A stretch of 55,414 bases of DNA, from IMG/VR virus record IMGVR_UViG_3300020733_000020, positions 1 to 55,414 of that record; one strand, written 5' to 3'. Shown one piece after another: positions 317 to 4,300 of the stretch. Position 1 is the stretch's first letter, and every line of letters begins with the position of its first letter. The notes beneath the pieces are model-generated. The model saw only the letters and a program-made list of their open reading frames with translations. It had not been told where the DNA came from and searched no databases. The position numbers were made by a program, and so were the translations under genes. Origin of the DNA: a virus. Its lineage: Duplodnaviria > Caudoviricetes.

Positions 317-1144
317 ATGGCCACAAACCCATTACAGCAGTACTTTAGACAACCAAAAGTTTATATCAAGTTACCATCAGGGGGTGCATATTCCAAGCCC
401 GGCAACATACAGGGCGATGTTACACACATGCCTGTTTACGGCATGACTGGCATGGACGAAATTATAATGAAGACTCCTGATTCGCTGTTAACAGGGCAAA
501 GCACAGCACAGGTCATTACCAGTTGCTGTCCTAACATCAAAGATCCTTGGGATATTCCCATAATCGACATCAATGCCATATTGGCCGCAATAAAAATTGC
601 TACATTCGGCAACACACTCAGCGTGACCAGCAAGTGCCCCGGCTGTCAAACCGACAATGATTACGATCTAGATCTTAACAAAATCATTGAGCACTATATG
701 AGTTGTCAGTACAACAACTCTGTGTCTGTGGGCAGTTTAAAAATTAAACTACATCCACTTGATTATAAAACCACTACAGAGTTTGGTATTCGCAACTTCC
801 AACTGCAACAGCAGATGGTGCAAGCAGATCAAATGGAACAAGGTGATGCTCGCACTGAACAAATGAAAAGACTGTTCGAAGAACTGGGCAAACTGCAAAC
901 AGACATTATCAAAAGCATTATAGAAAGCATTGACACTGGTGCTCAAGTGGTTACAGAATCTGAATTTATCAACGAATGGGTTGACAACTGTGACAAGACT
1001 GTGTTCGACAACATCAGAGAACAAAACATCAAGAACAATGAAATCTGGTCTGTTCCTCCTTTTGATGTTGTCTGTGAGAACTGCGGCAAACAGGACAGCA
1101 TCAAAGTAGAGCTGGATGAATCAAATTTTTTCGTCAAAGCCTAA
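317..1144 (+). CDS. T4 gp26/gp51-like baseplate hub assembly protein (tail assembly chaperone-like)
   Basis: N-terminal NPLQQYFRQPKVYIKLPSGG; MT..DEI..KTPD.LL.G; D..AIL.AIKIATFG; two CxxC pairs (CPGC, CENC); C-terminal ..SNFF. Confidence 0.7.
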   Translation: MATNPLQQYFRQPKVYIKLPSGGAYSKPGNIQGDVTHMPVYGMTGMDEIIMKTPDSLLTGQSTAQVITSCCPNIKDPWDIPIIDINAILAAIKIATFGNTLSVTSKCPGCQTDNDYDLDLNKIIEHYMSCQYNNSVSVGSLKIKLHPLDYKTTTEFGIRNFQLQQQMVQADQMEQGDARTEQMKRLFEELGKLQTDIIKSIIESIDTGAQVVTESEFINEWVDNCDKTVFDNIREQNIKNNEIWSVPPFDVVCENCGKQDSIKVELDESNFFVKA

Positions 1145-1365
1145 TTGGACTAGCACCTGAAGAAGTAGAACGGCGTCTAATTAGGCTAGACAACGAAATC
1201 AAAGAATTCAAGCAAGAACTATTTCGCATATCCTGGTACATGCGTGGCGGTGTTTCAGTCACGGAACTGCTTAACTACTACAGTTACGAAGATCGTGACA
1301 TGATATATAGTGTGATTAAATCTAATCTTGAAGCTACTAAAGAAACTCGTATGCCTCTGATATAA
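1126..1365 (+). CDS. -1 frame extension of the upstream gene via a probable programmed ribosomal frameshift (fusion ~349 aa)
   Basis: In-frame slippery heptamer T TTT TTC at 1126-1132. The -1 frame is open for 77 further codons (RQSLIGLAPEEVERRLIRLDNEIKEFKQELFRISWYMRGGVSVTELLNYYSYEDRDMIYSVIKSNLEATKETRMPLI*). A stem pairs 1138-1150 with 1175-1187. Confidence 0.7.
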   Translation, partial: FFRQSLIGLAPEEVERRLIRLDNEIKEFKQELFRISWYMRGGVSVTELLNYYSYEDRDMIYSVIKSNLEATKETRMPLI

Positions 1366-1390
1366 AGAAGAACTACGTTCTTCTGTTTTT
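1366..1390 (+). terminator. Intrinsic terminator-like hairpin, possibly bidirectional
   Basis: AGAAGAAC-TAC-GTTCTTCT (1366-1384) followed by GTTTTT, immediately after the TAA at 1363-1365. Confidence 0.6.
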
Positions 1391-1814
1391 CGCTTGCGCT
1401 CAAACTTTTCTTATTTCTTTAATCGATTTATAGTGCGAAGCACTTAAGATATTATCTAGATTGTTCAGTCACACTTTGCCCTAGCCGGGCAAAACGTGGA
1501 CATTATCTGAGTTGAACATGATCACAGTAGCAATATGGCGTTACAGAGGCGGTCATCCGGTACCTCGAGCCAAGTCTTTATATGACGGCAATTAGTATAC
1601 ATTCGCTACCATATATACTAATCCAGGGTTTTTCTCCCTTCTTTTAGCCTTTTAAATTTGTTTCTTGCAAGTCAAACCAGTTTGAGGCATATCTGATCGT
1701 CGTCCTGTAAAGGATAGTGACTTTGCTGATCTGCGCCAAGCAGACACTCCTTACCGCCACACATCAGAGCGGATTACGGGCACCTTAACTGCGCCGGTGC
1801 GGGCTTATTTGGCG
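1366..1814 (-). ncRNA. Candidate large structured non-coding RNA (~450 nt), class unrecognised
   Basis: No ORF of 60 aa or more in an otherwise gene-dense genome. Many inverted repeats: 1432-1444, 1462-1467/1513-1518 enclosing 1475-1481/1487-1493, 1591-1599/1614-1622, 1692-1697/1763-1768, 1780-1784/1796-1800. Strand is inferred from the upstream operon. Confidence 0.55.
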
Positions 1815-2261
1815 TTATTTTGCCTTGTTTTCTTGGAGTTTCTTAATGTGTGAGCCGTGTACACGCACTTGAATATGGCCGTTATAGTAGTCGTTTGACT
1901 CTAAAACTCTGCGTGAAAACTGCTCTCTAGCCTCTACATACGACATTTCTGCTTTGGAAATACAGTAAAAAAGTATTTCTCTGCGAAAGTTTTCTGTTCC
2001 TAACTGCGTAACATCCTTGGTTAATTCTGGACTTGAGCCATAATATGTGGGCCAGTCCGAGTCAATTTTGCTACGGATTTTCTTTTTTTTCTTGGTGCCG
2101 TTCTTTAATTTTACTGTCTTTGTGACTGTTTTAGAAAATTTTGCTAGTTTTTTGCCTATGTACATGCGACCTGTAATAGTATTCGTGATTATATATACGA
2201 ATCCTACACAATCTTCAGGAAGTTCTGAAACTAATTGATCTTGATAGTACCATGACATCAA
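1815..2261 (-). CDS. GIY-YIG family endonuclease, catalytic domain only
   Basis: GFVYIITN...G.MYIGKK motif; YYGSS; F.REIL; conserved Glu in AEMSYVEAREQ; YYN motif. No C-terminal DNA-binding domain. Confidence 0.8.
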   Translation of the reverse strand: MMSWYYQDQLVSELPEDCVGFVYIITNTITGRMYIGKKLAKFSKTVTKTVKLKNGTKKKKKIRSKIDSDWPTYYGSSPELTKDVTQLGTENFRREILFYCISKAEMSYVEAREQFSRRVLESNDYYNGHIQVRVHGSHIKKLQENKAK

Positions 2262-2525: not shown

Positions 2526-4300
2526 TCGGTAATCTCCAAATCATTAGCATAACTAGTGAATCCGTTTTCCTTAACGACCTTTAATACGTTGTTGACACGC
2601 CCGATCAGTTCATCTTTGTGCGATATCAAGAAAATATTCTTCTTGCGCTCACGTGCCATCTTCTTAAGTACTGCCAGTGCGCCCTCTACACCTGACGCAT
2701 CTAGGCCGTTGTCTATCAATTCATCAACAAACAACAGGTTAATCTGCTGATACAGTGATTCCCAAACATCACGGAAAGCCCATGACAAACCTAATATTAG
2801 TCGATTACGCTCACCACGCGATAGGTTATCAAAGTCTAAATCTTGCCCTAGCTGTGTGATCAGCACAGATAAATCGTTCTGGAACATGACAGTATGCGGT
2901 AAACCCATGCGATCTAAGTAGTAGGTCAAGCGATTATTAAGATAAGCCAGATTCTGATCAATGATTTTCTTGCGGATAAACGAGTCTTTTGACGTCAATA
3001 GCTTGAGCAAGAACTCCTGATGGTCCTTTAAACTGCTGAGTGTATTGACATGATCCCAAGAAATCTCCTGAATAGCAGTATGACGTAGCTCATCTATCTG
3101 TTCTTGATAAGGATCTTGCTCACCTGCTTTAACTGTTAGGTTAGTTTCTAGACTCTTTAAGTTATTCTGATGCTTGAGAGCCTGCTCAACTGTGTCGTAA
3201 TATGTGTTGGGTCTAGTGGTTACTTCGCCCAGTTCTGCTATGTCCGCGACAATTTTAGCCAAATCTTTTTCGACCTTGGCATAATATTGCCGGGCCTCGT
3301 CAAGGTGTGCTTGTGCGACAGCAGTCATTTCTTCATGCTTATGGTCATGTAGCTCTTGTTCACAAGCGTGACAAGTCTTGTTAGCCAACAAGCCAAGCTC
3401 GCGATCATACTTCGTGACGCTTCGCTCCGCTTGCGCTATCGCGCTATCTAACGTAGCCCGCTCCTTATTCAGGCTTTTCAGCTTCGCTGCCTTATCTTCA
3501 TAGGCTTTTAGCTCGCTGTGCTTCGCAAGCTCAGTATCTATATCTACGTTTTCTAGCTCTACAATAGCACGGGCTATCTTTTCAATTTCTGCTTGATGCT
3601 GGGTATTCCATGCACTTTGTTTAGTTGTTAAACTATCAATGCTCTTTTGTATACCTTCGTTGCTACGTTTTGTAGCTTCAATAGCGGCATTTTCTTGTGT
3701 AATTTCATCTTTAGTTGATTTGATTAGTTCTTTAAGTGCTTCTGCTTTCTCACTTAGTACAGTAATACCTAATAATTGTTCAATGATTGCTCGTTGATCA
3801 TTGGCTCGCATACTAAGGAAAGGCTCTGTATAGGTATTGAGTGCTACAATATGTTTGAACATATCATGACTCATACCTAACAAATCATCTAAATCCTTTT
3901 GTGTTTCGCGCATGTCTCCTTGTGCGTCATCTGTTTCTTCTGAACTTTGTTCTATATCATTGACATAAAACTGAAGTACGTTAGGTTTACGCCCTCGTTC
4001 AATGCGATAATCGATGCCGTCCTTTTCAAATGCTAGTGTAACTAACATGCCTTTATTGTTAATCTTATTAACAAGATTATCTTTTTTAATATTAGTTAAC
4101 GCCTGTCCATATAATGCAAAGGTTAGTGCATTGACAATAGTAGTTTTGCCTGTACCGTTGCGTGATCCACTGTCATCTCCACCTTGATCTAAGTTTTCTC
4201 CTAGCACAAGTGTAAGATTCTGTTGTGCAAAGTTTACAGCCTGGGTTTGATTGCCCACGCTCATGAAGTTTTTTACTGTTAATTCTTTTAATTTTATCAT
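2522..4300 (-). CDS. Recombination endonuclease ATPase subunit (T4 gp46 / SbcC / Rad50-like)
   Basis: VKNFMSVG; Walker A RNGTGKTT; coiled coil with zinc hook CHAC; signature LSRGE; Walker B LLFVDE; ISH motif. Confidence 0.93.
   Translation of the reverse strand: MIKLKELTVKNFMSVGNQTQAVNFAQQNLTLVLGENLDQGGDDSGSRNGTGKTTIVNALTFALYGQALTNIKKDNLVNKINNKGMLVTLAFEKDGIDYRIERGRKPNVLQFYVNDIEQSSEETDDAQGDMRETQKDLDDLLGMSHDMFKHIVALNTYTEPFLSMRANDQRAIIEQLLGITVLSEKAEALKELIKSTKDEITQENAAIEATKRSNEGIQKSIDSLTTKQSAWNTQHQAEIEKIARAIVELENVDIDTELAKHSELKAYEDKAAKLKSLNKERATLDSAIAQAERSVTKYDRELGLLANKTCHACEQELHDHKHEEMTAVAQAHLDEARQYYAKVEKDLAKIVADIAELGEVTTRPNTYYDTVEQALKHQNNLKSLETNLTVKAGEQDPYQEQIDELRHTAIQEISWDHVNTLSSLKDHQEFLLKLLTSKDSFIRKKIIDQNLAYLNNRLTYYLDRMGLPHTVMFQNDLSVLITQLGQDLDFDNLSRGERNRLILGLSWAFRDVWESLYQQINLLFVDELIDNGLDASGVEGALAVLKKMARERKKNIFLISHKDELIGRVNNVLKVVKENGFTSYANDLEITD

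Follow-up and report, generated by a model that had tools for sequence, protein, structure and literature searches.

The Polynucleobacter-1 motif as the predicted head of a larger pseudoknotted RNA with twin boxes behind a phage GIY-YIG gene

The viral record IMGVR_UViG_3300020733_000020 was analysed over its whole length of 55,414 nucleotides (the window, in what follows; the record is estimated to be about 15% complete). It contains one long stretch without genes, which lies directly behind a gene for a small GIY-YIG nuclease, and the question raised by this locus is what that gap encodes and whether its product works together with the nuclease. An initial annotation, made by eye, had proposed a large structured non-coding RNA at this place and a possible ribonucleoprotein formed with the nuclease. 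The singularity of the gap was borne out: when open reading frames (ORFs) of at least 50 aa were considered in six frames, 1145-1814 was the sole ORF-free stretch of at least 150 nt in the window. Because a 74-codon frame with no start (1141-1365) falls within this stretch, the gap proper is 1366-1814, and it is convergent, lying between the minus-strand GIY-YIG gene and the plus-strand gene that ends at 1365. The large structured RNA directly behind the nuclease gene was likewise recovered, as a conserved, strand-specific and pseudoknotted molecule. From the comparison of its relatives, it appears to carry a motif that is already catalogued as its 5′ domain and two identical seven-nucleotide boxes near its 3′ end, and the nuclease appears to be its neighbour rather than its partner.

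Identity, extent and fold of the RNA

The 5′ third of the RNA was matched by the Rfam family RF01718 (Polynucleobacter-1) at 1805..1665 on the minus strand, with 64.8 bits against a gathering score of 37 and over model positions 1-141 of 141, and this was the sole Rfam match above cut-off in the window. The statement of the initial annotation that no known class was matched is thus wrong for this third, where the claim of novelty fails, and it stands for the ~300 nt beyond, for which no Rfam family reached its cut-off in the window or in the relatives that were scanned. Among those relatives, RF01718 was found in 15/15 (59.5-120.9 bits) and the rest of the RNA was matched by nothing. The same ~300 nt were aligned and colinear across 60 distinct relatives, and separate profiles for three parts of the RNA (domains 1, 2a and 2b) gave colinear, contiguous matches wherever the sequence sufficed, including at the loci closest to the Rfam consensus. 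The length of the whole RNA was 415-503 nt in the relatives. On this evidence, the RF01718 motif appears to be only the 5′ domain of a larger stand-alone structured RNA, composed as follows:

1808..1360, minus strand: the whole RNA, about 445 nt, with ends drawn from conservation and 60 distinct homologues aligned over the full length.
1665..1805, minus strand: domain 1, the RF01718 motif (Rfam match), with helices P1-P6 and a small crossing helix of 1802-1804 with 1793-1795.
1524..1652, minus strand: domain 2a (nhmmer, 106 bits), with Ha, Hb, Hc, Hd and the conserved core GGUACCGGAUGACCGCC.
1363..1519, minus strand: domain 2b (nhmmer, 135 bits), with two tandem units of box plus hairpin, a GCAA-loop hairpin and the terminal hairpin.

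Relatives were gathered in two ways. A search with the GIY-YIG protein retrieved 80 viral loci, the best of at least 581 relatives on viral contigs, and a search with the RNA pattern retrieved 48 loci; a covariance model was built from four close copies and the Rfam structure. For the structure counts, 60 distinct sequences were aligned with MAFFT, and helices were found through column-pair covariation and stacked complementarity, which gave a model of 66 pairs in 14 helices. RNAalifold applied to the raw MAFFT alignment had given 47 pairs only, some of them spurious and end-to-end, and was replaced by these column statistics. Hairpins misaligned by MAFFT (P3, Ha and the terminal one) were checked sequence by sequence, and P2, which MAFFT shifts, was left out of the pair counts.

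In the model, 96.1% of the cells pair, against 80.4% after shuffling (0/500 shuffles reached the model) and 34.5-41.2% when partners were slid by 1-3 columns; the covariation score was 0.477, against 0.179 for the shuffled alignment and 0.04-0.07 for slid partners. The covariation that the initial annotation had asked after was found, with changes on both sides at 48/66 pairs and in 612 cells. Since G-U pairs are conserved, many of them invariantly (pair 128-167 is GU in 60/60 sequences and pair 130-165 is UG in 48/60), the strand of the RNA was fixed as minus. The order of nuclease gene and then RNA noted earlier therefore held as an adjacency, with the strand corrected, both the gene (2261..1815) and the RNA being on the minus strand. 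Three sets of helices cross, namely the small 5′-end helix with P1, the Hb loop paired with 1526-1533, and Hc with Hd. The individual elements beyond domain 1 are these:

1591-1622, minus strand: hairpin Hb, ATTAGTATA/TATACTAAT, with 12/12 pairs changed on both sides.
1603-1609 with 1526-1533, minus strand: PKb, the apical loop of Hb in its crossing pairing, with 6/6 pairs changed on both sides and 98.1% of cells pairing.
1582-1589 with 1549-1556, minus strand: Hc, which crosses Hd.
1569-1572 with 1536-1539, minus strand: Hd, all four pairs with at least three pair types.
1474-1494, minus strand: Hh of domain 2b, well supported.
1434-1442, minus strand: a UUCG-loop hairpin in the second unit of domain 2b.
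1366-1384, no strand assigned: the terminal 8-bp hairpin, which forms in 58/60 relatives with 21 different stems.

Five of the stems that had been picked out by eye belong to the RF01718 motif. GCACC/GGTGC is helix P1, and it covaries, as do P4 and P6 (4/5, 5/6 and 2/5 pairs changed on both sides in P1, P4 and P6, respectively). CCGC/GCGG and TCTGC/GCAGA are P2 and P3 of the Rfam consensus, and P3 is a single hairpin in 56/60 relatives, with 29 different stems. TCCT/AGGA was right in its CC/GG core, which is P5, and this core never varies. TCAAAC/GTTTGA is not a pair, its halves belonging to P6 and P4. Further along the RNA, AGGG/CCCT is hairpin Ha, formed in 54/60 relatives with 27 different stems; the pair ATTAGTATA/TATACTAAT is Hb; the nested stem at 1462-1518 includes Hh; and GAGG/CCTC sits at a helix, He, for which support is weak. 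The pseudoknot suggested between ATCAGA and TCTGAT is not conserved, one half being present in 17/60 sequences, the other in 10/60 and both in only 5/60. Finally, the terminator-like hairpin noted at the end of the gap is present at 1366-1384; it was scored as terminator-like on the plus strand only, its minus-strand tail being UUUAUAU, and it is likely to be the terminator of the RNA and, on the plus strand, that of the convergent gene ending at 1365.

Domain 2a gave a weak match to cow-rumen-2 (1525-1624, minus strand; 20.8 bits, E 0.6, with the cut-off at 66), with which it has in common a UAGC-loop hairpin and the GCCG.CAU / GGAUGACC blocks. This match did not recur at E <= 1 in 15 relatives, and domain 2a may be a distant relative of cow-rumen-2, a motif that in the literature searched is named in Rfam release papers only.

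The table of Weinberg et al. (2010; PMC2864571) classes Polynucleobacter-1 as probably an RNA, probably cis-regulatory and possibly a switch, and gives Burkholderiales and freshwater or estuary data as its sources. The window covers the full model of that motif, and no function is assigned in either. However, the catalogued motif has 141 nt, whereas it forms here the 5′ domain of a molecule of about 445 nt, to which two more conserved domains, the twin boxes and three crossing helices also belong. In the literature searched, which did not extend to the supplementary files of the motif paper, no account of the full RNA, its pseudoknots or its boxes was found; relative to that literature, the 5′ third is a known motif and the extended RNA, the pseudoknots and the boxes appear to be new. 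Other large and elaborately folded RNAs, bacterial or phage-associated, are described as having no known job, among them GOLLD, ROOL and OLE (PMC12286853). In contrast to them, the RNA studied here is smaller and matches no such Rfam family, nothing suggests that it forms homo-oligomers, and its boxes are identical and not self-complementary.

The twin boxes

Each of the two tandem units of domain 2b consists of a stretch of ~26 nt followed by a hairpin, and the same heptamer is found in both:

1502-1508, minus strand: box 1, AGAUAAU after ACUC (60-sequence alignment and parser).
1451-1457, minus strand: box 2, AGAUAAU after AUCU, the same heptamer as box 1.

The boxes were read by a parser that keeps the best-matching box pair of each locus, run over the 86 loci with a domain 2b match. 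Both boxes were parsed in 82 of these loci, and the two were identical in 82/82 (72/72 distinct sequences), spelling nine words. Reading the four unparsed loci and further copies by eye yielded the words AGAUGAG, AGCAGAA, ACAUAAA, ACUUAAA and AGAUGAA, each present twice, and the number of different box words is at least 13. Position 1 of the box is A in 34 sequences and G in 26, and this choice is mirrored between the two boxes in 60/60, which makes it the strongest non-complementary signal in the RNA; the mutual information between the boxes is 0.99 bit. Between L087 and L099, which are close relatives, the letter at position 1 has changed, and it has done so in box 1 and box 2 alike. Because the two units keep their distinct flanks (CUC in one, UCU in the other) in every sequence and were never homogenised, the identity of the boxes is read as selected rather than as a product of copy-correction.

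No column inside the RNA offers a complementary partner to the boxes, no recurrent copy or complement of them was found within 3 kb, and the 9 matches to the box motif in the window are no enrichment over the 6.3 expected. Several simple identities were tried and rejected as well: a stop-codon rule is broken by the words AGCAGAA and AGCGAAA, and the sequences themselves also spoke against anticodon-loop mimicry, against -10 promoter elements, against a target-site duplication and against a mini-CRISPR array.

One specific idea, which we regard as a long shot, is that the twin boxes are a programmable address, the knotted scaffold showing a 7-nt word twice to a repeated or two-fold nucleic-acid target or to a co-evolving dimeric enzyme. 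The variety of at least 13 words, the joint flips of both boxes between close relatives, the two words found in one bacterial genome (described below) and the lack of a partner inside the RNA are consistent with it. If this were true, changing the word would retarget the RNA, and conflict between phage and host or between elements would then involve a sequence-addressed RNA device of a new kind.

Distribution of the RNA and its gene neighbourhood

The covariance model placed the RNA on the strand of the GIY-YIG gene in 69/80 protein-retrieved loci, and also in 10 loci, besides the window, that had been retrieved by the RNA pattern. In 66/69 the RNA starts no more than 45 nt from the GIY-YIG stop codon, the exceptions being L072, at 128 nt, and L068 and L118, which have an intervening ORF. 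Of the 11 remaining loci, all three parts are present in L053 and only the 3′ domain in seven; in L071 the core and box 1 were recognised by eye before the end of its contig, and L100 and L127 are cut short. Altogether, the RNA is kept behind the GIY-YIG gene in 78/80 loci, and the other two are those cut short.

The 5′ domain is less constant. L112, L104 and L071, as well as L115, L116, L117 and L125, have the same gene order with either of two alternative 5′ domains (~250 nt) in place of the Polynucleobacter-1 domain, and both swapped groups keep the core GGUACCGGNNNACCGCC and the twin-box domain. No Rfam match at E <= 1 was obtained for the alternative 5′ domains of L104, L112, L115 and L125. 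Additionally, L004 and L007 have domain 1 joined to one of those other middles. Because the relatives keep the core and the boxes behind other 5′ domains, the twin-box domain is the constant part of the RNA and the 5′ domain an exchangeable one.

RF01718 with the later domains and the twin boxes was also found in three metagenome-assembled bacterial genomes (64.4, 46 and 46 bits), and no GIY-YIG gene was matched near the RNA in these three bins. One of these genomes carries the RNA twice, with boxes that read ACUUAAA in one copy and AGAUGAA in the other, and the RNA occurs in 2/151 genomes searched of that bacterial order, which suggests a sporadic spread, as for mobile DNA. The copy in L134 has ordinary bacterial genes around it, and no sigma-70-like promoter was found upstream of the RNA there. 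Beside the bacterial copies, a small MRI[NS]EL.. gene with a proline/lysine-rich tail lies divergently upstream of the RNA (L134:2581-2991, L140:900-1316 and L130:1343-1843, all on the minus strand). In the two copies from one genome, the 5′ part of this gene and the spacer that separates it from the RNA have 72% identity across 367 nt, and the small divergent gene and the RNA may form a two-gene module. In the bacterial locus L130, the terminal hairpin of the RNA is followed, about 270 nt further on, by a tandem array of a 62-bp unit (3828-3985; 2.5 copies, 91% matches). This locus also has two extra copies of the terminal hairpin module, and its nearby genes include DUF6876 and DUF6641, a pair resembling a toxin-antitoxin system and an integrase-like ORF; its surroundings look like a mobile element.

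Downstream of the RNA, the convergent gene follows at 0-26 nt in 11/60 distinct RNAs, as it does in the window, and at least 700 nt separate the two in 47/60, where the interval is mostly filled by a gene on the same strand. In the relatives, an AT-rich ..ATAAATA.. element lies between the terminal hairpin and the next same-strand gene, and we take it to resemble a T4 late promoter. The genes that follow the RNA in most relatives encode proteins of 229-604 aa that have only their first ~9 residues in common (MK[VI]YEIISE-like) and are otherwise hypervariable; members of this family are found at 1-231 of the window (minus strand), at L055:3941-4825, at L066:3922-4944 and elsewhere, and the eight that were tried gave no Pfam or PHROG match. 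Their common start presumably resembles the T4 capsid-targeting signal of injected internal proteins. The injected internal proteins of T4 are described as diverse anti-restriction proteins (PMC3012670).

The genes around the gap in the window are the following:

2261..1815, minus strand: GIY-YIG domain protein of 148 aa, SegE-type catalytic domain only (ORF list and Pfam PF19835).
1141-1365, plus strand: the convergent 74-codon frame behind the baseplate-hub gene, a neighbour that lies outside the RNA.
317-1144, plus strand: T4-type baseplate-hub gene, upstream of the 74-codon frame.

The 74-codon frame has no ATG, GTG or TTG before 1240, and it abuts the hub gene or overlaps it by about 1 nt, in the window and in the relatives. 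The GIY-YIG gene closes a run on the minus strand, preceded there by genes for a metallophosphatase (343 aa) and an SMC/AAA ATPase (592 aa) and by an ORF of 87 aa; the metallophosphatase and ATPase pair presumably corresponds to T4 gp47/gp46. This order of metallophosphatase, ATPase, (87-aa ORF), GIY-YIG and RNA is fixed in 80/80 loci. No transfer RNA (tRNA) or transfer-messenger RNA gene was found in the window, a nucleotide search of phage isolates with 1100-2600 gave no match, and no sigma-70-like promoter was found on the minus strand in 1000-2600 by a scan that does not cover T4-type promoters.

The nuclease and the likely role of the RNA

The identification of the 148-aa protein as a GIY-YIG nuclease was confirmed by a match to Pfam PF19835 (E 5.9e-32), and it is also a member of phrog_447. 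The Pfam domain fills residues 4-130, leaving no appended DNA-binding domain, in agreement with the earlier remark that the protein has the catalytic domain only. The blocks GFVY..ITN, GR.YIGKK, YYGSS, F.REIL and YYNG are kept in at least 90% of 65 relatives, and catalytic roles may presumably be assigned to residues within them; no solved structure gave a sequence match. The identity of the protein across the lineage is 71-93%, and it is better kept than the neighbouring proteins of the same loci. By tblastn, the family was found in 474 phage records, mostly of cyanophages. Homologues are often annotated as 'NAD synthetase' (for example P-SSM2 PSSM2_218 and YB07 QBP06381.1, and also phrog_447), a name that looks like a propagated error, given that the Pfam match indicates a GIY-YIG nuclease.

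Outside this lineage the gene keeps other company, its place differing across distant phage groups, and the gene neighbourhoods of six sampled homologue records all differ. Beside the gene of Melnitz-3 (a Methylophilales phage, 50% identity) and of syn9 (36%), neither RF01718 nor the RNA model was matched. In P-SSM2, P-HM2, Stenotrophomonas phage YB07 and S-SRM01, as judged from annotation only, no large RNA is annotated by the gene, and protein genes follow directly after the homologue in four different neighbourhoods. In syn9 (L139, 3432-4149), the homologue gp202 is followed, after about 180 nt, by a tRNA-Arg gene and, about 850 nt beyond that, by a wcaG RNA (78.6 bits). Among 65 aligned GIY-YIG proteins, no residue tracks the boxes, the best mutual information between a protein column and a box letter being 0.24 bit. 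Since the protein occurs without the RNA, the RNA occurs without the protein and no residue tracks the boxes, the nuclease was judged to be a neighbour. On these comparisons, the linkage is not obligate, and the gene and the RNA appear to be fixed neighbours that are probably co-transcribed and form no nuclease-RNA particle. The consistent linkage expected by the initial annotation thus holds within this lineage and breaks down beyond it, in the six records and the three bacterial bins; its proposal of the RNA as a guide, scaffold or inhibitor of the nuclease found no support, and its alternative of an independent phage non-coding RNA fits best.

The reading preferred here, to which a probability of roughly 55% is given, is that of a stand-alone RNA read in trans by a two-fold partner, with the GIY-YIG protein as a DNA-acting fixed neighbour and with a role in conflict. 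The RNA would most likely be made as the 3′ end of a transcript of the recombination-nuclease and GIY-YIG genes, since in the window it starts 6-9 nt after the GIY-YIG stop codon, and it would most likely end at the hairpin 1366-1384. Its pseudoknotted body holds the two identical 7-nt boxes in fixed places, where they would be read in trans by a two-fold reader, such as a protein that is dimeric or binds twice, or a nucleic-acid target that is repeated. Both the two-fold reader and the conflict role are guesses, the best guess for the latter being a decoy, an antidote or a specificity element in conflict between phage, mobile element and host. A trans-acting conflict or specificity RNA is proposed because the scaffold is rigid, the word is shown twice, words switch quickly and the spread is sporadic. 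The GIY-YIG protein would act on DNA and not serve as a subunit of the RNA, and its adjacency to the RNA may have the same logic as that of SegB-type genes beside tRNA genes.

Several points weigh against this reading. No reader of the boxes was found in the RNA columns, the 3-kb surroundings, the window or the GIY-YIG columns, and in L007 the boxes differ at 1/7 letters. The helices were picked on the same alignment that was used for counting, so the counts lean toward the model, and the parser's choice of the best pair favours box identity a little. The folding energy of the single sequence has z = -1.50, and 5/100 shuffles fold as well; because single-sequence folding does not go beyond chance, the evidence for structure is comparative, and it is this comparison that establishes the existence, extent, strand and fold of the RNA and its twin boxes, its exact ends being placed by conservation. 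Both the 5′ and the 3′ end are therefore deduced rather than mapped, and the U-tract of the terminal hairpin on the minus strand is weak. Among the sequencing runs on record as RNA, none contains the stretch; the contigs of one run labelled metatranscriptomic are probably DNA, hold only short pieces of relatives and have no bearing on expression. Finally, the bacterial copies are in metagenome bins, and L130 and L137 could be mis-binned mobile DNA.

A possible alternative, which we hold to be doubtful, is that the adjacency alone is functional, as for SegB: the enzyme would cut the DNA of competing phages in or near the RNA gene or drive the amplification of that gene, so that both genes would be passed on jointly, and the RNA would work independently. 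In the accounts consulted, T4 SegB lies in a tRNA cluster and promotes its inheritance (PMC2330249), and SegB amplifies neighbouring anti-defence loci, its homologues standing beside tRNA genes more often than expected by chance (PMC13096335). A free-standing GIY-YIG gene beside a structured-RNA gene in a T4-like phage is what is seen here too, and the position of gp202 before a tRNA gene in syn9 fits the same pattern. However, the protein here is a catalytic domain of 148 aa only, its neighbour is not a tRNA gene and its cleavage activity is putative. An RNA gene lies beside the homologue in only 1/6 sampled isolates, and the gene sits at one fixed place in 80/80 loci. Moreover, the presence/absence polymorphism expected of a homing-type gene was not seen, the gene being present in 80/80 protein-retrieved and 10/10 RNA-retrieved viral loci, with no phage locus having the RNA without it.

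Quite improbable, in our judgement, is a replication element, named as an alternative in the initial annotation too, in which the transcript would prime or regulate an origin and the boxes would be iteron-like DNA sites. The tandem array of L130, the abutment of the RNA on recombination genes and its occurrence both in phages and in mobile-element-like bacterial DNA are in line with it, but the compensatory changes, with G-U pairs on one strand, are a mark of selection for a folded single strand. In the window, moreover, the RNA has no repeats of this kind close by, and the manner in which the boxes differ from their flanks suits units of an RNA. A cis-regulatory leader controlling the downstream hypervariable MK[VI]YEIISE gene is highly unlikely in turn. 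It would agree with the tentative label of 2010, the motif being marked as a probable cis-regulator in the table of Weinberg et al. (PMC2864571), and with the same-strand gene that mostly fills the space of at least 700 nt in 47/60 loci. However, no same-strand gene follows in the window or in 11/60 relatives, a conserved hairpin ends the RNA in 58/60, the ..ATAAATA.. element stands before the next gene, and beside the bacterial copies the comparable small gene is placed divergently instead of downstream. In this phage, the RNA is on sequence grounds not a leader, as it appears to end at the conserved hairpin abutting the convergent gene.

Least probable of all is that the RNA and the GIY-YIG protein form a ribonucleoprotein in which the RNA is guide, scaffold or inhibitor: the tight same-strand adjacency throughout the lineage, the gene upstream in 10/10 viral loci found by the RNA pattern alone, the well-kept protein (71-93% identity) without an appended DNA-binding domain and the variable word in a conserved scaffold are met by a protein family of 474 phage records whose six sampled members lack such an RNA beside the gene and have differing neighbourhoods, by the RNA without the gene in three bacterial bins, and by the absence of a protein column that tracks the boxes. 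IscB with its omega-RNA and TnpB with its reRNA are, as here, nuclease ORFs beside a structured RNA with a variable word; however, in the present case the fold is GIY-YIG, the co-occurrence is not obligate, the word is internal, of 7 nt and present twice, and no transposon ends were seen. A literature search on GIY-YIG proteins with structured RNAs found nothing related, and we know of no RNA-guided GIY-YIG enzyme.

For the stand-alone RNA preferred here, the analysis removes the tempting but unsupported story of an RNA-guided GIY-YIG nuclease. It is rare for a structured RNA to exceed 400 nt and to have several pseudoknots, and those that are understood are mostly ribozymes or parts of machines. 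The twin boxes give a sharp handle for experiments on this one. The Rfam entry RF01718 could be extended and its 'cis-regulatory' hint revised, since a motif catalogued in 2010 as short and possibly regulatory appears to be the head of a much larger RNA that is common in a large group of uncultured T4-like phages.

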